Source: Naegleria gruberi (lineage: Eukaryota). Taken from it: 64,000 bases of DNA. Shown here piece after piece: positions 26,877 to 41,525 of the stretch. Made by a program: the position numbers and the translations under genes. The notes beneath the pieces were generated by a model, which saw only the letters and a list, made by a program, of their open reading frames with translations, did not search any database and was not told the DNA's origin. The stretch's first letter is position 1; every line of letters begins with the position of its first letter. The stretch lies in assembly GCA_000004985.1 (NCBI GenBank), contig GG738918.1, one strand, 5' to 3'.

Positions 26877-28238
26877 ATGGGTGAAGTGATTCATGTACAA
26901 GTTGGAGGGTGTGGCAATCATATTGGTTATCAATTTTATGAAAGAATTGCCAAACATGAACATTCAATTCTTCCCAATGGTGAAAAAAGCCTAACTCGTA
27001 ATCATGAAAATATTTACACTGATATTGATGAAGAAAATTACTATACAAATGTATTCTTTGAAGAGAGTAAGAGTGGTCGATGGTCTCCGAGGGCTGTTTT
27101 AGCAGATTTGGAGCCTTATTCCATAGATCAAATACAACAATTAGAATATGGAAGAATATTTAAGAGCGAATATAATGCAATTTATCAGTATGGTGCTGGA
27201 GGAAATTGGGCAAAAGGGCACTATACGATTGGAGCTGAATGTGTGGATAATGTTATGGAGGTAGTGAGGAAACAAGCTGAAAATTGTGGGAACTTACAAG
27301 GATTTCAATTGATGCATTCGTTGGGAGGAGGATCAGGATCAGGTTGGGGTACTCTGGTGATATCTAAACTGAGAGAGGAGTATCCTGATAAGATTGTTTC
27401 TAGTTGTTCTGTTTTTCCTTCTTTGAAAGCATCATCTACAAATCCTGTTGAGGCCTATAATTGTGTTTTGGCTTTTCACCAATTGATTGAGAATACAGAT
27501 TTCGTATCATGTTTTGATAATGAAGCTCTGATTGAAATACAATCAAAATTGAATCTAACCAATGAAGGTTTTAGTGCAATTAATAGAATAATTGCAAAGG
27601 TTATGTCTGATGTAACCTGTTCATTTCGGTTTCCTTCCCATTTAGGGTATAATTTAAGAAAGCTTGCCACCAATTTGATACCTTTTCCTAGACTCCACTT
27701 TGCAACAATTTCACACACTCCAATTAGTGCTGATAGTAATAATTCCTCAAAGAATATATCAGAACTATTCCAAAATTTGACATCTCCAAATAATGTCATG
27801 TGTGGCTGTGATCCTAGAAGTGGTCGGTATATGGCTGCCATTGCTTTATTCAGAGGCTCTATGACATTGAAAGAAGTGAATGATGTTGCTTCATCTGTTT
27901 CCAATAAGAATTCTTCTAATTGGGTTGATTGGATGCCACCCAATTTAAAATCAAATGTTTGTAAGAAGAAATCAGGTGATTTTGAGTCGGCTACTCTCAT
28001 TGCAAACTCCACATCTATTCGATTCTTGCTCACCAATATTGAAAATCGATTCGATAACTTATTCAAAAGGAAAGCGTATCTTCACAACTTGTGTTATGAA
28101 GGAATGGATGAAATGGAATTTTCAGAGGCACAACATAATCTTAATGATATCATAACTGAATACAAGTGTTACGGAGACGAAATTCTTGACGATTTCGATG
28201 ATAGTAACCTTGATCTTTCTTCTAAGGACTTGATATAA
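26877..28238 (+). CDS. divergent beta-tubulin-like protein (tubulin/FtsZ GTPase fold)
   Basis: Collinear with beta-tubulin end to end. MGEVIHVQVGGCGNHIG (T1 loop, canonical GQCGNQIG). GAGGNWAKGHYTIGAE. LGGGSGSGWGTLVISKLREEYPD (canonical GGGTGSG). NEALIEIQ, LRKLATNLIPFPRLHF, AYLHNLCYEGMDEMEFSEAQHNLNDIITEY. Roughly half of positions are conserved relative to canonical beta-tubulin. Confidence 0.8.
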   Translation: MGEVIHVQVGGCGNHIGYQFYERIAKHEHSILPNGEKSLTRNHENIYTDIDEENYYTNVFFEESKSGRWSPRAVLADLEPYSIDQIQQLEYGRIFKSEYNAIYQYGAGGNWAKGHYTIGAECVDNVMEVVRKQAENCGNLQGFQLMHSLGGGSGSGWGTLVISKLREEYPDKIVSSCSVFPSLKASSTNPVEAYNCVLAFHQLIENTDFVSCFDNEALIEIQSKLNLTNEGFSAINRIIAKVMSDVTCSFRFPSHLGYNLRKLATNLIPFPRLHFATISHTPISADSNNSSKNISELFQNLTSPNNVMCGCDPRSGRYMAAIALFRGSMTLKEVNDVASSVSNKNSSNWVDWMPPNLKSNVCKKKSGDFESATLIANSTSIRFLLTNIENRFDNLFKRKAYLHNLCYEGMDEMEFSEAQHNLNDIITEYKCYGDEILDDFDDSNLDLSSKDLI

Positions 28239-29831: not shown

Positions 29832-31031
29832 ATGATGAACAAGAGAAACGCTGGCGGAATTGAAAAGCAAGTGGTGTGGAGGAAGAGATTCAAGATCGAG
29901 AAGGAGCAGATTAATAATATTTGCAATTATCTGACCGATGGAAAATTCACTGATATTTCAAATTCTTCAAAACGTAGAACGCAGAAAAAGAAGAAGAGAA
30001 TTGATGAAGAGGAAATAGTTGAAACTAAAAATCCATCATCACCAGGTGGATTAGATGTCTATGAAAACACAAAATACTATGAATCGATAAGTAACTTTGC
30101 TTCACAATGGATAATTTCGCAAGAGGAATTAAATCACTTGGCTGAACAAGTCCAAGCTGAAGACAAGGAGCAACGACTAAAAGATCGCCTTTCTGAGGAG
30201 TATGAAATACAACAACGTCTAAAAGAAAAGGAAGTTAATCATCTTTCCTCTTTACTTCAGTCCTCTAGGAAAACATTATCATCTTTGGCGGAATTGTTAG
30301 AGCAAACAAAACCTACAATGATCAAACCAGAAGTTGATCCATTGCCTCTTCAACCAACAACAGCAACAGCTGTTTCTACACCACCTCCTCGTCAAACAAG
30401 TTCAACTGCTACCAATGCTAATGCTAATAATATTACAACAACAGCGATGGAACAAAGGGAGTTACCTAATAATTCAACAACAACAAATAGTAATATTCCT
30501 TCACCATTCGCTGCTAAACCTCCTCCAATGGCTAATAATCAATCAGCTATGAATACTAATCCTCCTATTATTGGCACTAGTAACATGACAACAAATCATC
30601 AACCACCACTTATTTCACCAGATTCTGCTTCAAATTCTACAACGAATAGTGTTCAACCAACTCAACCACCACCTTCACATCAACAAGGAAGTACAACCCC
30701 ATCCTCCTCTCTAAGTAATCAATCTAGTCTTCAAATCAAAGAAATACCCGACCATTCTCCACCACCTCCATACTATCCACCTTCATCTAGTTTACCATCT
30801 CACAGTCCTCACGTTAATGCATCAAATAGTATGATGATGAATAATTCACAACAAAGGCATTCATATCACAATCATTCTAGGTACCAACAACCTCCTCCAC
30901 CTCCACATCATCCACCTAATATGTGTGCACCTCCAATAGTACCTCCTTATATGCCACCACATCACTATCACAATCCATATCCTCAATATCCATACATTAA
31001 TCATAATGATAGACAAAGAAGAAAGAGGTGA
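29832..31031 (+). CDS. hypothetical protein with a coiled-coil segment and Pro/Gln/Ser/Thr-rich C-terminal half containing PPxY-like motifs
   Basis: 399-aa ORF. PPPPYYPP and PPYMPP near the C-terminus. No enzymatic motif. Confidence 0.4.
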   Translation: MMNKRNAGGIEKQVVWRKRFKIEKEQINNICNYLTDGKFTDISNSSKRRTQKKKKRIDEEEIVETKNPSSPGGLDVYENTKYYESISNFASQWIISQEELNHLAEQVQAEDKEQRLKDRLSEEYEIQQRLKEKEVNHLSSLLQSSRKTLSSLAELLEQTKPTMIKPEVDPLPLQPTTATAVSTPPPRQTSSTATNANANNITTTAMEQRELPNNSTTTNSNIPSPFAAKPPPMANNQSAMNTNPPIIGTSNMTTNHQPPLISPDSASNSTTNSVQPTQPPPSHQQGSTTPSSSLSNQSSLQIKEIPDHSPPPPYYPPSSSLPSHSPHVNASNSMMMNNSQQRHSYHNHSRYQQPPPPPHHPPNMCAPPIVPPYMPPHHYHNPYPQYPYINHNDRQRRKR

Positions 31032-31049: not shown

Positions 31050-33503
31050 TTATTTAAAGAGTTTTAATACCGTTTTGAATGTTCTTGTTTGATTCTCATT
31101 AAATATTTTGAGGTTTTGTTTCTTTTTCAGCATGTCATTAATAACGTTTGAATCTTTGTAAACTTTGTGAGGTTTTACAACTTCAGTTTGAACTTTGATA
31201 TTTTTCAGTAGATGGTTAGGACGGTTAGGATTGAGGAAACTATAATTTGGAAGAATGTCCTTGGCAGGTAGTGAATTTAATTGATTTTGAGGGAATTTGG
31301 TAAGAGTCATTTTGGTGGTTTCTTGATGTTGGAGGAAGAAGGAATAATCATCCTTATTTGGAACTGCTTCCAATTTTTCTGAAATAGCAGAACGAATCCT
31401 TTTCAATGTATCTTCTTTTAACCAGTTTGAAAGAACATGAATAAAATCTTCACGATGATCAAATAAGTGTTGAACTGGAGAATTTTCAAATACTTGTCTA
31501 ACCTCAGGTATTGGAACAATATACTTGTGTCTATGTGAAATAGATGATGAAATCTAATATTGACAATCTACTTACTTTGCAGAAACACATGAAGATACAC
31601 AAAATTCTAGTGGATTCAAAATGAAATTATCAGAAGCTGGCACATTAATTGTCAAGAATGAATCTGGTTTACCTTCCACTTCCTTCTCACAATATAAAAC
31701 TAATTCATCAATTGATGGAATTGATTTAGGTTTGTAATATTGTGAATATCCCAAATTCTTTCCCTGAATATAACTCATAAACCAGGCACACATCACCAAA
31801 TAATCCTTCACAATTGGTTGATAGGATACTTCTGCAATCTTTTGTTGGAGTTTCCTTATTGAATTTGCATACTTTTCAATTTGTTCCTGATAGAAAAATG
31901 ATAAAAACTCATTAAATTGTTCTCTAGTCTCAAAAAGTCCAGTTTTAACTTTGGCTTCTCTGTGAAGTTCTCCATAATCAAAATTTAAGAAAATATTCTT
32001 GAATGCATTATTGAAAGCATCCTTCTTTGATTTACCTCTTGCTGTTGTAATGTAGGATTCTCCAATTTTGACCACGACTTGGAAATGTGGTTTTGGTTCT
32101 GCATCAATAATTTCATATTCCTCACATAGAAATTCTCTCTTTCCAAGATTTAATAAGGTAATAAGAAATACCATTGCTTCCTTTGTTGGAATATTATCAA
32201 TGTTAATCTTTGGAAATCCATTTTCCATTTCAGCTTTCTTCTTTGAATTGGATGTTTCAGTATCTTCATTTTCACCTTGCTTGAAATCCTTAATATAATC
32301 AGAATATAATGAAGATAGGAACTTGACATTGATTTTCATTTCACTTGGCTGTTTCAAATCATAATGTATTAAATACTCTCTATTTTCTGAATACTTTTGG
32401 TGAGCAATATATCTATCCATAAATAATTTAATATCAAATCTTCTCGGTTTAGAAATATAATCATTTCCACATAGAATAAATAAAAAGGTCATATCTGTAA
32501 TAATTCTCGATAAATCTTCATCTGATTTAGTTCTACATCGACGAGCAATTTGTTCCTTTAGTTTGGTAACATCATATAATTGATAAAAACCAGGCATATC
32601 TTTCACAAGAGTAATATGTCTATTGCGTGGTAAATTGAGAGCATATAAAACAAAATCTGAATCTCCAGAAACAATCAAATCTCTCTTCTCCTCCTTTTTG
32701 TGATTGTTTTTCTCTGATGAATAAATATGTTCAAGGATTTTAAACTCTCCCTCACCTTCTCTCCCAGCAGGTGAATGATAGAATGCAAGATTATTATTAA
32801 AAGTAGGATTTGTTAGCACCAATGCACCCAATTGCCAAATAACTAGTGAAACTTCTTGCATTAAATTTGTTCCTGGAACAAACCAAACAGAACTAATTGC
32901 CTTCTTTTCATTTCTTTCATTAATTACATTTTTCTGAATGAGTTTCAGGTAAATCTTTTGCACTTCAGTGAGAACAATCTCTTCATCCATATCTGATAAA
33001 TTAATAAATGAAACAAACGTATTTCCAGTATTTGTCATTGCACTATTCAAATATCTTCTAACTTTTTGTGTAATTAATTTACTTCTAGGTGCAGGACCAT
33101 CCACAGAAAAGAATAAACTTTCTCTAGCATCAAAATGATTCAAATATCTCATTACTCCCTCCAAAACAACAGAATGAAAAACCATTCTAGTATCTTGTGG
33201 AATTTCTTCATCTTCTCCTTCTATCTTTGTACCATTATCCTTTTCTGTTGTTGAATCTTGTTCCAAAATTGATTCCTTTCCTTGATTCATTACATTTTGA
33301 TGGTATTTCATCCTATTCATTATCTTTCTAGAACCATGTGTTGATTTATACAGCAGAGTATTAAAATCAAAATAAATATTATCATAAACATCCTCTGGTT
33401 TAATTGAATTATTCCTCCTCGTATTATTTAATTCATCTTTTGTGATGATGAAAGATTCTCCGAAGAGAATTGATAAAGTTTTGTAGAATGAATTAATTCC
33501 CAT
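31050..33503 (-). CDS. XRN-family 5'-3' exonuclease-like protein with a C-terminal dsRNA-binding motif; exons 31576..33503 and 31050..31530
   Basis: N-terminus MGINSFYKTL...YDNIYFDFNTLLYKSTH and FSVDGPAPRSKLITQKVRRY parallel XRN MGVP.FFRWL...FDNLYLDMNGIIH and AIDGVAPRAKMNQQRSRRF. A 45-nt GTAAGT..ATAG intron (31531..31575) is in frame. Near the C-terminus PKPHFQVVVKIGESYITTARGKSKKDAFNNAFKNIF has the dsRBD signature (..G.G.SKK.A...AA). Confidence 0.6.
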
Positions 33504-33715: not shown

Positions 33716-35071
33716 TTAATCGTTGAATTGAACAATAATATTAACACCACGATCGGCAATAACTTCAGTATCAGTAGCATAAAGTTCAGTTCCTGTATGG
33801 AATAATTCCTTGACCTTCTTCTTCAAGTTTGGTTCAGTCATTTGTCTGAGAGTTGCAGGTTTAGTCAAATACAAAGTTTGGTCACTAGTCAAATTACGTA
33901 ATGAAGCATTGTTGAATTGAATTGACTTGTCGGTTCTCAAAATATCTCTAAATTCATCCAAAGTAATATCTGATGAACAAGTAATTGTCTTTGAAACACC
34001 AGCAGGACCACATTGCAAACAATCTGGCTTTCTTTCATTCTTATAAGTGAATGTATAAATACCTTCACTTCCGTTAAACATCATGTAATCATCCAAGAAT
34101 GGAGTACAGAAAGTAGCCAATTTGAATGCTTCATTTGTACATGATGAAGCAATAATAGCATTGGTGGAGGCAATAGCAGGAATGATACCCTTGATGACAC
34201 CTTGTGTTAAACGGAATGTAACACCAGCAATACCAAAGTTCTTGGCACGTTCCAAAGACTTTTCATAGATCCATTGAACGTGTCTTGGATTATCACCATC
34301 AACTTGTTCATCATCAGGAATACCTTCCTTTCCTTTACAATTACGCCATTCTTCAATATAACAATATTGAATACAATGTTCAGGAAGACGTGGAGTTGTC
34401 TTTAAAGTACACATTGGATAATTTGTTTCATCAGTAGGGAATAAATCCAAAGTACATTCATAACAAGATGTAACACCTGGCAAGATAACTCTAGATTGTC
34501 CTTTAAAGCCTTCAGTACCACCATCAACCAAGGAAATCATGGAACTCATATCAACTTCAGTCTTTTCATCATCAACATATTGAATCAAAGAGAGGAGAGT
34601 ACTATTGATCCAACGACGAGCTGGAATAGAATCCAAACCAGCAATAATAATTCCAAATGATCTATAGAAATCAACAGACTTTTCTTGGATTGCACAAATG
34701 TGTGCTGTAACTTTAACACCTGGCACTCTTTCATTGACAAATCGAGCAGCAACTTCAGCCTTCATCTTACCAACATCACCATCACGGAACAAAAATTGTC
34801 TATTCAAATTACTTGTACTGATGGTATCCATATCAATGATATCAATATTACGGAAGCCACTCATTGCCAAATTCTTCACCAAATCGCAACCAAGACCACC
34901 AGCTCCAATAATTAAAACTTTGCAAGAATCTTGTAAAAATTGTTTAGTTTCATCACCAGCTTGGAAATCTGCTGGAGCAAATGGACCTGATCTCTTCAAA
35001 ATATAATCAAGATCTTTCCATCTTTCTGCTTCAATTTCAGGAGGGAATGATGTATCTACAACGCTGGCCAT
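33716..35071 (-). CDS. UBA3: NEDD8-activating enzyme E1 catalytic subunit (UBA3)
   Basis: ATG at 35071 (MASVVD). VLIIGAGGLGCDLVKNLAMSGF..IDMDTISTSNLNRQFLF (ThiF/MoeB nucleotide-binding), PMCTLKTTPRLPEHCIQY (catalytic Cys region), LIDGGTEGFKGQSRVILPG. Collinear with human UBA3 along the full length. Confidence 0.85.
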   Translation of the reverse strand: MASVVDTSFPPEIEAERWKDLDYILKRSGPFAPADFQAGDETKQFLQDSCKVLIIGAGGLGCDLVKNLAMSGFRNIDIIDMDTISTSNLNRQFLFRDGDVGKMKAEVAARFVNERVPGVKVTAHICAIQEKSVDFYRSFGIIIAGLDSIPARRWINSTLLSLIQYVDDEKTEVDMSSMISLVDGGTEGFKGQSRVILPGVTSCYECTLDLFPTDETNYPMCTLKTTPRLPEHCIQYCYIEEWRNCKGKEGIPDDEQVDGDNPRHVQWIYEKSLERAKNFGIAGVTFRLTQGVIKGIIPAIASTNAIIASSCTNEAFKLATFCTPFLDDYMMFNGSEGIYTFTYKNERKPDCLQCGPAGVSKTITCSSDITLDEFRDILRTDKSIQFNNASLRNLTSDQTLYLTKPATLRQMTEPNLKKKVKELFHTGTELYATDTEVIADRGVNIIVQFND

Positions 35072-35353
35072 TTTTTTTCTATGTATTGAATTGATCAAAC
35101 TTGCAGAGAACTTGAGTTTATTTTTAAATCCAAAGTTGCTGCTTTGAAAGGCTTGGGATGAACTCAACAACATTGAGAAATATTGTTGAACACAAGTGAA
35201 ACAATTTACAATGAATGATAGAGAGAGTTGGGGTTTTGAATTTGAATTTGTAATGGTGTGAATTTTTAAAAGAGATGATCAACTTTTGAAGTTATTGCCA
35301 ACAACATATTGTAGTTTTCCAGAAACCATGACATAAATTTTTTCACCTCAACA

Positions 35354-39074: not shown

Positions 39075-41525
39075 TCAATTTCCAGACAGGTTGTTAATGT
39101 GATTCTTATAGATAGAGATTAGTTCTAAAACTTGTCTAACTTCTTGGAAGTTGATAGTGTTGTGAGTAGTTGATGGATTTTCACGATTACTAAATGAGAG
39201 ATTTCTCCAATAATTTGCAACATTAACATCTGCACAATTTTGTTCCTTTCTAAACTTTTTCAAATTATAGAAGAGTCCAACAAGATTCCCTCTAAGGTAT
39301 TTCTTTGCAGTCTCATTGAATTGTTTGATATCTTGTTCAATAGATAAAAGTTGCTCATTGTAAAAAATGTTGATGGATTGGCAGAGTTCTATGTATATAT
39401 TTTTGAATTGTGAAAATGGTTTGGTGAAGAGGGGATTGAGATTGTTCACTAAATGATCTTCATTCACTTGATTAGAGAATTTACTTTGCATGATGGATGA
39501 AACTATTCTTGTATCATTATATTTTGATGAGGTCAACTCGTATGGAGGATTTTCTAGAACATACTTGTCCAGTTTTGAGACTAAATAATTGACATTACAC
39601 AATCTGAGAGAGGGAATATTTGAGTGAAGAGATGACTTCAATATAAAACATTTGTATGGTTGTTTGAAATTGACAAACTCTAGTCCTTCATATTCGAGGG
39701 GTGAGAACTTTTCAAAATCATTCACAAAATCCTGAAGGTCCAAAAATCCTATATCTGAATATGATTTAACAAAGTCGTTCCAATTATATTTTGTAGAAAA
39801 ATCAATCCAATTTTCATATTCCATCATAGATTCTAGATTTCTACTCCCACAATAAATAATTCTATTACTATTTTTCTGATAAATGAAGAAAAAGTTCAAC
39901 ATTTGATCTTCATGGGATGGATACTTCATTCCAATTCTTTCAAACAGATTTTCAAATTCCTGTTCAGTTTGACTCATATCAAAATTCTTGAGAATCCATT
40001 TGGAAATCCAATTGTCCTTTTCATCATCAAAGACAAACCTCCACTCACCAGAATAAAAGAAAAGCGAACACCTTATCCCAACTGGCCTTTCTAGAATTTG
40101 AATTGAGCTCATGTCAATATCTGAAAAATAGTCACTACCAACTTTTTCTAGTATGAAATTATAATCCATAGCATAGAATCTAGGAACACATACAGGAGTG
40201 TAAACTATCTTTCCATTATCATCAATATTATAAGATAGTACTGTTCCATTACATTCCAAGTAGGACCTACATTCTAAGAAAAGTTTACACAATTCTAAGG
40301 AAATATATTCCATATCACAATCTATCTTGAATAGTTGAGAACTATTAGGATTAAGATGCTCCTCTTTGGATCTAATAATTGGTGTCACATTCACTGAAAG
40401 TAATCTCATCAAGCTGTATGGACCGTATTTGTAGTGGTGTGAAAAGTCTAGTTCATAATTATGCTCTACAACCATTATTAATTCACTAAACAGTGGATTA
40501 TCCTTTTCAAAGCCTGAAGAATATGTATTCAGGAAGTTTTGAATACCCAATGAACTATTGCTTTCTGAGTTTTTACATTTGAAAAGGGCATCTTTGATAA
40601 TATTCTTCAGATCATCTTTTAATTGTTCCTTCCATGTCTTATAGAGTGCATCACTAATTTGTTTATACTCATTCCAAGAACTAAATGAATCAGTATGAAA
40701 TACAATGCTGTCATAGAGTTTGTTAGTTTCGGTATAATCATATATAATACCTGAATTAACAAATTGATAAGCATATTTCGAGTATCTAATACCATGAGCT
40801 AGGTTTTTCTTCACCTTCTTTAGAGTACTTTTCCTTTCACTTTCATCCTTGCAAAGTTTGTTCTCCAAAACATTCCAAAATCTAAATGCCTTATTAAAGC
40901 AATGATGAAGCTCGTGAAGGAATGAATTTTTAGTTCTAGAAATTCTCAAAAACCACAAACTCCAATGATGCCTCCATAATTTCATCTTTTCATCCTCAAA
41001 CAGAACAAATGATGAATTTGGTTGCAGAACAGATAGCATGAATATTGGCAATTGTAAATAAACATGGTCCACAAAGAATGAAGTTTCCATAATGTGCACT
41101 TCCATATCGTATTCCTTCTCTTCTAATTTACCCTCCTCATCATCACAATTACACTTAATAGAGCTTTTCAATAAATATTGTAAATTATTAGAATATCTCG
41201 TTTCATAATCAATACAATGAGAGTAAAAATCATCAACAATCATTATTAAATCAAAATCAGAATCGTTTACATTGGTTTTTGAAACTCTTGATCCGAACAC
41301 GTAAATTCCTCTAATCGAATCATCACGATATAAAACCTTGTCCTTCAACAAGCCTTCTTCAGAAATTGTAATAAAATTGCGAATATGATAAATTAATTCA
41401 TCACTTGAGAAGGGAAATTTAAATTGATTTTCATGGAAATGATGTGATTGCCAATATTGACTCGGTCCAGTACTCTCTTTATCATAACGGAAATTATTAA
41501 TGGTGCATTTTGGAAATTGTTGCAT
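39075..41525 (-). CDS. large protein with an N-terminal Pol-beta-superfamily nucleotidyltransferase-fold motif (PAP/Cid1/TUTase-like)
   Basis: IYVFGSRVSKTNVNDSDFDLIMIVDD fits hG[GS]x9-13[D]hDh. The remaining ~650 aa are helical with no recognised motif. Confidence 0.4.
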   Translation of the reverse strand: MQQFPKCTINNFRYDKESTGPSQYWQSHHFHENQFKFPFSSDELIYHIRNFITISEEGLLKDKVLYRDDSIRGIYVFGSRVSKTNVNDSDFDLIMIVDDFYSHCIDYETRYSNNLQYLLKSSIKCNCDDEEGKLEEKEYDMEVHIMETSFFVDHVYLQLPIFMLSVLQPNSSFVLFEDEKMKLWRHHWSLWFLRISRTKNSFLHELHHCFNKAFRFWNVLENKLCKDESERKSTLKKVKKNLAHGIRYSKYAYQFVNSGIIYDYTETNKLYDSIVFHTDSFSSWNEYKQISDALYKTWKEQLKDDLKNIIKDALFKCKNSESNSSLGIQNFLNTYSSGFEKDNPLFSELIMVVEHNYELDFSHHYKYGPYSLMRLLSVNVTPIIRSKEEHLNPNSSQLFKIDCDMEYISLELCKLFLECRSYLECNGTVLSYNIDDNGKIVYTPVCVPRFYAMDYNFILEKVGSDYFSDIDMSSIQILERPVGIRCSLFFYSGEWRFVFDDEKDNWISKWILKNFDMSQTEQEFENLFERIGMKYPSHEDQMLNFFFIYQKNSNRIIYCGSRNLESMMEYENWIDFSTKYNWNDFVKSYSDIGFLDLQDFVNDFEKFSPLEYEGLEFVNFKQPYKCFILKSSLHSNIPSLRLCNVNYLVSKLDKYVLENPPYELTSSKYNDTRIVSSIMQSKFSNQVNEDHLVNNLNPLFTKPFSQFKNIYIELCQSINIFYNEQLLSIEQDIKQFNETAKKYLRGNLVGLFYNLKKFRKEQNCADVNVANYWRNLSFSNRENPSTTHNTINFQEVRQVLELISIYKNHINNLSGN

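Follow-up and report, generated by a model that had tools for sequence, protein, structure and literature searches.

A conserved XRN exoribonuclease subfamily with a predicted double-stranded RNA-binding domain between the two core regions, identified in Naegleria gruberi and its relatives

Two classes of XRN exonucleases are usually distinguished, Xrn1 and Xrn2/Rat1; the enzymes of either class act on single-stranded 5'-monophosphate ends and require partner proteins for targeting. In Xrn1 and Rat1, only the single-stranded 5'-monophosphate end of the substrate reaches the active site, and duplexes are unwound at its entrance. Here we describe a gene located in a window of 64,000 nucleotides from contig GG738918.1 of the Naegleria gruberi assembly GCA_000004985.1 (AT-rich, G+C content of about 30%). 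An earlier note on positions 31050-33503 of this window, which was made from the nucleotide letters, had proposed that they encode an XRN-like protein of about 800 amino acids (aa) that ends in a canonical double-stranded RNA-binding domain (dsRBD). The length estimate was accurate, the spliced product being 802 aa long, and so was the proposal that an XRN domain is combined with a dsRBD in an arrangement unlike that of Xrn1 or Xrn2; the placement of the dsRBD was not, because the domain is an internal insertion between conserved regions 1 and 2 (CR1 and CR2) of the XRN core. Judging by sequence comparison, this protein, denoted here dsRBD-XRN, belongs to a conserved and so far uncharacterized XRN subfamily with an internal dsRBD, that is, an enzyme of a known kind with a new layout. 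The parts of the gene that are relevant for the comparison with the known XRNs are the following.

31050..33503, minus strand: the whole gene, two exons and one intron, encoding the 802-aa XRN-like protein (spliced open reading frame)
32271..33503, minus strand: CR1, aa 1-411, with the catalytic acids, the 5'-phosphate pocket and Tyr52 (Pfam XRN_N, Rat1 alignment)
31977..32195, minus strand: dsRBD insert, aa 437-509, of alpha-beta-beta-beta-alpha topology, in the CR1-CR2 linker (fold model, Foldseek, family profile, hhalign)
31989..32036, minus strand: motif GKSKKDAFNNAFKNIF, aa 490-505, comprising helix alpha-2 and the end of strand beta-3, with the KK of RNA-binding region 3 among its residues (model, residue table)
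31830..31967, minus strand: helical spacer between the dsRBD and CR2, aa 513-558 (invariant columns F530-K544; predicted helices 513-521 and 527-558)
31359..31820, minus strand: CR2 equivalent, aa 562-700, interrupted by the intron (motif, XRN_M of relatives, Foldseek)

The assignment of the N-terminal region to the XRN family, as suggested in the earlier note, is borne out by a highly significant match to Pfam XRN_N (PF03159; E=4e-32 to 7e-32, 111-112 bits against a cutoff of 22.9), with scores of 108-125 bits across the four orthologs, and by a sequence search of PDB in which Rat1/Xrn2 were the best matches (S. pombe Rat1, E=2.3e-6). The DGxAPRxKxxxQxxRR, GEGEHK, DxD and GNDF motifs align with those of Rat1/Xrn2; in the hallmark blocks of the Rat1 alignment, DGPAPRSKLITQKVRRY corresponds to DGVAPRAKMNQQRSRRF, GEGEFKI to GEGEHKI, GDSDF to LDADL and GNDY to GNDF. 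The acidic residues of the XRN active site, which in Xrn1 numbering we take to be D35, D86, E176, E178, D206, D208 and D291 (PDB 3pie is the E178Q mutant of Xrn1), have their counterparts in D46, D135, E251, E253, D281, D283 and D348, embedded in the motifs FDFN, VDGPAP, GEGEFK, GDSDF and GNDY. All seven metal-binding acids, the absence of which, along with that of any dsrm match, the earlier note had named as grounds for abandoning its reading, are thus present and invariant in the four orthologs, and E251, E253, D281, D283 and D348 are also invariant in the 23-member family alignment. The 5'-phosphate pocket, equivalent to K93, Q97, R100 and R101 of Xrn1, is formed by K142, Q146, R149 and R150 (PRSK142LITQ146KVR149R150, aligned to PRAKMNQQRSRR of Rat1), again invariant in the four orthologs. 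The position of the stacking His (Xrn1 H41) is occupied by Tyr52 (DFNTLLY), and Tyr is found there in most of the family members in which the motif is readable; for its Trp partner (Xrn1 W540), the canonical SWxW is replaced by L-G-Y-S-Q-Y-Y in N. gruberi and by D-Y-S-[FY] in the relatives. Given that the aromatic character is retained at both stacking positions, the function may be preserved. In CR2, the family-type motif Y-x5-W-x3-Y-x2-G-K-N-L-G-Y replaces the canonical ...SWxW[YF]YP.HYAP, and Pfam XRN_M passes the cutoff in relatives that are aligned at the CR2 position (P0008, 53 bits; P0027, 69 bits). A full-length AlphaFold2 (AF2) model built from four sequences is poor (predicted local distance difference test score, pLDDT, 52); when this low-confidence model was compared with known structures using Foldseek, all 27 matches with E<1e-3 were to Xrn1 or Xrn2/Rat1, with Xrn1 on top and alignments extending over 640-777 columns.

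The closest described systems therefore provide the framework for the comparison. With Xrn2/Rat1 (PDB 3fqd, 5fir, 7opk), dsRBD-XRN shares CR1 of the core (its CR2 equivalent being predicted), the seven acids, the K/Q/R/R pocket and an N-terminus that begins with MG, but the identity over CR1 is only about 20-28%, Tyr52 stands in the place of the stacking His, G-x-C/N-x-[DG]-Y in CR2 takes the place of SWxW, and the dsRBD occupies the linker between CR1 and CR2, a disordered segment in Rat1 and Xrn1; in addition, the N. gruberi protein yields no Pfam XRN_M match and has a different C-terminal tail. The canonical CR2 of Xrn2/Rat1 (SWxW..YPxHYAP), a subfamily that is also characterized by a segment for partners of the Rai1/PAXT type, is absent here and present in two other N. 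gruberi proteins. Xrn1 (PDB 3pie, 2y35, 9e70) has the same catalytic core but is a protein of 1,000-1,700 aa with domains D1-D4 following the core and without a dsRBD, whereas dsRBD-XRN consists of 802 aa, in which Pfam recognizes only XRN_N and a weak dsrm.

The motif GKSKKDAFNNAFKNIF, which the earlier note had placed at the end of the protein, ends at aa 505 and is followed by 297 residues that include CR2 and a conserved tail. The last 80 aa, where a comparison with dsrm had been proposed, contain no dsrm match, and a C-terminal dsRBD was rejected, the sole dsrm signal being at aa 465-500 of 802. The description of the domain as canonical was too strong as well, considering that Pfam dsrm scores 18.6-19 bits, under the gathering score of 23. 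Nevertheless, several lines of evidence indicate that the insert is a genuine dsRBD, as predicted both by its modeled fold and by the profile of its relatives. The AF2 model of aa 435-518 (pLDDT 81.6; predicted template modeling score, pTM, 0.72) has the alpha-beta-beta-beta-alpha topology (helix 6-16, strands 25-33, 39-46 and 49-56, helix 59-73), which is reproduced in the full-length AF2 model, and nearly all of its top 50 Foldseek matches are dsRBDs, including TRBP dsRBD1 and Staufen1 dsRBD3-4 (E=1.9e-3, probability 1.0) as well as ADAR1, Dcr1, Drosha, PKR, DHX9 and mL44. The relatives carry, upstream of CR2, an insert with the signature G-x-G-x-[ST]-K-K-x-A-x-x-x-A-A-x-x-A-L, and two of them pass the Pfam dsrm cutoff at the homologous site (P0009, 28.7 bits; P0027, 26 bits). 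Because the XRN_M match of these two relatives is split around this insert, between XRN_M positions of about 30 and about 190, the dsRBD can be assigned to the CR1-CR2 linker. In a comparison of the profile of 22 insert segments with PDB, all 60 matches listed were to dsRBD proteins, among them Staufen1 (E=1.5e-12), ADAR2 (8e-8), PKR (1.4e-7), TRBP (3.5e-7) and RNase III (2e-6), and the top match remained at E=3e-13 after removal of the Naegleria and Willaertia rows. Between the dsRBD and CR2, the spacer motif FNEFLSFF..EQ.EK is kept in Naegleria and Willaertia.

The possibility that the resemblance to dsRBDs is due to chance, so that the segment would merely be a lineage-specific linker, is extremely improbable and can be considered effectively refuted. 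It would fit the modest Pfam dsrm score in N. gruberi (E=0.002, 19 bits versus the cutoff of 23), the lack of dsrm in the three closest orthologs and the E-values of only 0.08-0.12 obtained when the profile of the four Naegleria and Willaertia orthologs was compared with PDB, but even for this weak profile the top three matches (T. maritima RNase III, poxvirus E3 and K. polysporus Dcr1) are all dsRBDs. The chance explanation is further at odds with the modeled fold and its Foldseek matches, with the relatives that exceed the Pfam cutoff at the same site and with the E-values of the family profile. A hidden Markov model (HMM) built from the Naegleria dsRBD rows alone did not detect the inserts of the relatives, which were located by position, between the GNDY and CR2 motifs; in hhalign, the Naegleria/Willaertia profile aligned in register with the profile of the relatives over beta2-beta3-alpha2 (E=2.3e-4). 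Shuffled sequences scored at most 4.2 bits with the family dsRBD HMM, compared with 20-68 bits for the members, most of them 45-68; the lowest-scoring member (20.1 bits) is the sole match outside the HMM training set besides a near-duplicate cluster member. Given that the insert is a dsRBD by fold and by the profile of the relatives, the second of the grounds for abandonment named in the earlier note, the lack of a dsrm match, does not apply either, despite the sub-threshold Pfam score.

The extent of the family was assessed by an exhaustive HMMER profile search, which yielded 3,380 XRN-like proteins, and the family analysis was performed on the best 150 representatives of 50%-identity clusters. 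When the protein, the ortholog alignment or the 23-member alignment was used as query in word-indexed searches, nothing beyond the Naegleria/Willaertia clade and a few weak XRNs was recovered. In the ranking, this clade is directly followed by proteins of 480-850 aa that align along the whole query including the insert. The dsRBD was found in 23 clusters among the best 150 representatives, 22 of which also have the family-type CR2 motif, compared with none of the 18 proteins with a canonical CR2, and the replacement of His by Tyr is usual in the family wherever the motif is readable. The members include the heteroloboseans Naegleria gruberi, N. lovaniensis, Willaertia magna and Acrasis kona, and the amoebozoans Balamuthia mandrillaris, Endostelium zonatum, Planoprotostelium fungivorum, Arcella intermedia and Acytostelium subglobosum (two paralogs); the family CR2 motif without a detectable dsRBD is present in two further amoebozoans, Dictyostelium purpureum (DICPUDRAFT_158467) and Synstelium polycarpum, and in the green alga Chloroparvula japonica. 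The annotations of the named members read hypothetical or 'Xrn1 N-terminal domain-containing' protein, except for that of the Acrasis protein, which carries the generic name 'RAT1'. That the layout has been preserved across deep eukaryotic divergences speaks for selection acting on the XRN core as well as on the dsRBD. Of the two A. subglobosum paralogs (P0031 and P0041), one has a detectable dsRBD but lacks the family-type CR2 motif under the pattern used, and the other has this motif and a degenerate insert, a combination suggesting that the gene was duplicated and the dsRBD lost within the family.

Two canonical XRNs of N. gruberi, XP_002671758 and XP_002679108, are on record in a published survey, and the dsRBD-XRN gene is missing from an earlier inventory of mRNA-decay genes in this species that was compiled with BLAST. 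Both canonical proteins contain DNLYLDMNGIIH and GEGEHKIM and are at most 28% identical to dsRBD-XRN. Since neither of them corresponds to the gene described here, the latter, as identified from its sequence, is a third XRN paralog of N. gruberi and is absent from the published survey. In open-access text, we found no paper on an XRN with a dsRBD and nothing relevant on XRNs of Naegleria or Dictyostelium or on XRNs in mitochondrial proteomes.

The gene consists of the following segments, the second exon of which is missing from the public gene model.

31576..33503, minus strand: exon 1, aa 1-642 and two bases of codon 643 (open reading frame 31572..33503; GTAAGT directly after ...GCA AA)
31531..31575, minus strand: 45-nucleotide phase-2 intron GTAAGT...CATAG with an in-frame TAA (splicing joins the reading frames)
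31050..31530, minus strand: exon 2, aa 643-802 and the stop codon, encoding the last part of the XRN core together with the conserved C-terminal tail (ortholog conservation)

The uninterrupted minus-strand reading frame starts at 33503 and runs to a TAA at 31574..31572, which lies inside GTAAGT, and its product is 100% identical to the 643-aa 'predicted protein [Naegleria gruberi]' of NCBI. The N. lovaniensis ortholog (803 aa, 52% identity) spans both exons, and the alignment is gapless across the splice site (...CVSSCVSYK/NKHIVPIQEV in N. lovaniensis, ...CVSSCVSAK/HKYIVPIPEV in N. gruberi); its genomic locus contains a 92-nucleotide GT..AG intron at the identical codon position. Exon 2 is also covered by the Willaertia magna ortholog (765 aa). 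Given the conservation of exon 2 and the intron position shared with N. lovaniensis, the 643-aa model was rejected as the full protein: the public N. gruberi model is truncated at the missed intron, where it stops at the intronic TAA, and is short of 159 C-terminal aa, the final part of the XRN core among them. A truncation at this very position is also found in the relative P0003 (637 aa). Two short separate gene calls, P0020 and P0021, match only the part encoded by exon 2 (profile positions 636-786 and 682-786, respectively).

Several other groups of nucleases share individual features with dsRBD-XRN. RNase III, Dicer and Drosha are likewise RNA nucleases with a covalently attached dsRBD, and their dsRBDs match the insert by profile and fold; however, they are endonucleases of the RNase III fold, unlike the PIN-like XRN exonuclease, and their dsRBD is terminal and not internal to the core. 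Short XRN_N proteins encoded by giant viruses (IMG/VR GVMAG contigs; median length 532 aa) are among the search matches and probably account for much of the rest of the best-150 list (many of P0012-P0155). These proteins retain the stacking His and mostly lack a recognizable CR2 motif. A giant-virus origin of the family was considered and rejected, with neither the dsRBD nor the family-type CR2 motif found in any of the 74 IMG/VR loci (L002-L075).

Additional, highly diverged XRN paralogs also occur in another lineage of Discoba, as exemplified by XRNB, XRNC, XRNE and XRNF of Trypanosoma brucei. No domain outside XRN_N has been recognized in these diverged paralogs, XRNE and XRNF among them (PMC3854532). 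The trimmed alignment in the supplement to PMC5862402 shows that kinetoplastid XRNB shares the CR2 variant ...W-x-L-R-S-x-x-G-x-C-x-D-Y. Unlike dsRBD-XRN, XRNB keeps the stacking His, and no dsRBD is reported in any of the diverged T. brucei paralogs. Orthology with XRNB, which the G-x-C-x-D-Y motif brought to mind, was rejected: with the family HMM, XRNB (the lowest) and XRNC score below the canonical XRNA and XRND, and a special relation of XRNB to the family is accordingly not indicated.

The C-terminal part of the protein, which is encoded by exon 2, is another feature that sets the family apart.

31053..31358, minus strand: C-terminal region, aa 701-802 (tail composition analysis)
31053..31136, minus strand: basic, acid-poor, amphipathic tail with RTFKT, aa ~775-802 (within exon 2)

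In N. gruberi, the tail reads ...QTRTFKTVLKLFK. Across the family, acidic residues make up 4.1% of the last 30 aa compared with 12.1% of the remaining protein (Wilcoxon p=9e-8), K/R account for 21% compared with 12%, and the maximal hydrophobic moment is 0.52 compared with 0.39 (p=2.5e-4). The tail, which is seen at the C-termini of P0002, P0008, P0016, P0027, P0032, P0063, P0156 and others, is often preceded by variants of R-x-[FY]-x-[TS], namely RTFKT, RAYAT, RHFST, RYFST and RLFST. This pattern occurs in the last 60 aa of 11 of the 26 family members, in 3.7% of the control windows and in 6 of the 111 non-family XRN-like proteins. The tail could be a nuclear or nucleolar signal, a C-terminal presequence-like signal or a docking helix.

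Under one alternative, dsRBD-XRN would be a nucleolar exonuclease of ribosome biogenesis comparable to Rat1 or trypanosome XRNE, with the dsRBD reading stems in pre-rRNA or small nucleolar RNA (snoRNA) and the basic tail serving as a nuclear or nucleolar localization signal. Consistent with this possibility, the N. gruberi tail is acid-poor and, like the tail described for T. brucei XRNE, basic, the structures closest by sequence are those of Rat1/Xrn2, and it has been shown that a highly diverged XRN paralog, with a Lys-rich C-terminal nuclear localization signal in the case of T. brucei XRNE, can take over 5' trimming of pre-rRNA (PMC3854532). However, N. gruberi already possesses two canonical XRNs, and the family HMM has no special affinity to any of the kinetoplastid classes compared (XRNA, XRNB, XRNC and XRND), so that we regard this role as plausible but unlikely. 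A localization inside an organelle appears less probable still: the tail resembles a mitochondrial presequence in composition, although it is C-terminal, and there is a slight chance that the dsRBD-XRNs are a third, ancient class of eukaryotic XRNs that works within the organelle. In the mitochondrial variant of this scenario, the polycistronic or double-stranded transcripts of the mitochondrion would be attacked by a 5'-3' exoribonuclease equipped with a dsRBD. Since the native Met-Gly N-terminus of an XRN enzyme is required in the active site, the import of a mitochondrial XRN would have to rely on a C-terminal signal; such a signal directs the import of yeast Hmi1p into mitochondria. The evidence on the tail allows an organelle signal, a nuclear or nucleolar signal and a docking peptide equally.

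Taken together, the conservation of the core and the nature of the insert suggest that the product of the gene is probably an active exoribonuclease, processive in the 5'-3' direction and dependent on a 5'-monophosphate, which belongs to a distinct XRN subfamily and would be tethered by its dsRBD to RNA that is structured or duplex. As in Xrn1 and Rat1, the substrate would be threaded into the XRN active site by its single-stranded 5'-phosphate end, with Tyr52 and a Tyr/Phe substituting for the usual stacking His and Trp, and the 5'-phosphorylated RNA would be degraded processively. The built-in dsRBD would bind an A-form helix of the same RNA and thereby recruit the enzyme to, or retain it on, structured or partly duplex 5'-monophosphate RNAs; the candidate substrates include products of RNase III/Dicer-type or other endonucleases, pre-rRNA spacers, snoRNA precursors and fragments derived from double-stranded RNA. 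The basic amphipathic tail probably determines localization or partner binding.

Several observations weigh against this reading. On the side of the nuclease, the N. gruberi protein has other residues in place of the stacking His and Trp of Xrn1, so that processive stacking is an assumption; Pfam XRN_M is not detected in this protein and reaches only E=1 in Willaertia; and the full-length model is too poor to position the dsRBD relative to the RNA entry channel or the active site. On the side of the dsRBD, the Pfam match (PF00035) at aa 465-500 has only E=0.002-0.003 and remains below the cutoff, with no dsrm match in the three closest orthologs. The canonical RNA-contact residues (Glu/Gln in alpha-1, the GPxH loop and KKxAK) are only partly kept. 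In favor of the reading, the N. gruberi domain has K-P-H in loop 2 (beta1-beta2) and K-S-K-K-D-A-F at the start of alpha-2, thus retaining two of the three Lys of KKxAK; the third Lys, however, has given way to Phe in N. gruberi and in the ortholog nearest to it, and to Leu in the remaining two. The sequence of region 3 differs between family members (SSKTEAF, KRRRDAL, SSNSAEI), and alpha-1 of the Naegleria domain is a hydrophobic helix (MVFLITLL).

The latter group of features is compatible with an alternative in which the insert is a 'type B' dsRBD that does not bind RNA but functions as a protein-protein interaction, dimerization or scaffold module, for example by linking the nuclease to a partner such as a Dicer/RNase III-type enzyme, while the XRN core alone selects the substrate. 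The variability of the contact positions between members, the hydrophobic alpha-1 and the sub-threshold dsrm scores in the Naegleria/Willaertia clade all fit such a module, and the Foldseek matches include the protein-binding Staufen dsRBD5 and STAU1 'RBD'5. Conversely, the family consensus retains G-x-G-x-S-K-K-x-A-x-x-x-A-A, the region-3 signature of RNA-binding dsRBDs, and the best profile matches are to dsRBDs that bind RNA (Staufen dsRBD3/4, ADAR2, PKR, RNase III). On balance, we treat the protein-binding module as a real, if minor, possibility.

The role in small-RNA or double-stranded RNA processing that the earlier note suggested, taken here as that of a dedicated nuclease of a small-RNA or RNA interference (RNAi) pathway, appears rather doubtful. 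Such a nuclease would remove passenger strands, Dicer by-products or precursors of small interfering RNAs. The combination of a nuclease with a dsRBD parallels the layout of RNase III and of Dicer partners, and Xrn1 is reported to assist RNAi in budding yeast (PMC7528652). By contrast, the neighbors of the dsRBD-XRN gene encode a tubulin, a UBA3-like E1 and a nucleotidyltransferase but no RNAi component, although gene neighborhood carries little weight in eukaryotes. As far as the present data are concerned, 5' trimming of pre-rRNA or snoRNA and a protein-binding dsRBD fit them equally as well as processing of small RNA or double-stranded RNA.

The gene neighborhood within the window provided no functional clue. 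The neighbors of interest are the following.

26877..28238, plus strand: tubulin-family gene, 453 aa, with Tubulin and Tubulin_C domains
29832..31031, plus strand: convergent neighbor, 399 aa, rich in low-complexity P/Q/N/S/T sequence, with no Pfam match; it ends 19 nucleotides from the stop codon of the XRN gene
33716..35173, minus strand: adjacent upstream gene, apparently a single exon, encoding a UBA3-like catalytic subunit of the NEDD8-activating E1 (ThiF, E=1e-53; E2_bind, E=3e-17)
39075..41525, minus strand: 816-aa open reading frame with a Pol-beta-type nucleotidyltransferase domain (Polbeta, E=1e-6; NTP_transf_2, E=4e-4)

The last of these may encode a non-canonical poly(A)/poly(U) polymerase; its proximity to the XRN gene (5.5 kb) is, for a eukaryotic genome, probably coincidental.

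The class defined by dsRBD-XRN is represented in Heterolobosea, among them the genus to which the pathogen N. fowleri belongs, as well as in several lineages of Amoebozoa. It would add a previously unrecognized player to RNA processing in these organisms. A conserved class of XRNs with a dsRBD inside the catalytic core would represent a new way to direct 5'-3' decay to structured or duplex RNA, and the dictyostelid orthologs offer a tractable system for functional work on this subfamily.

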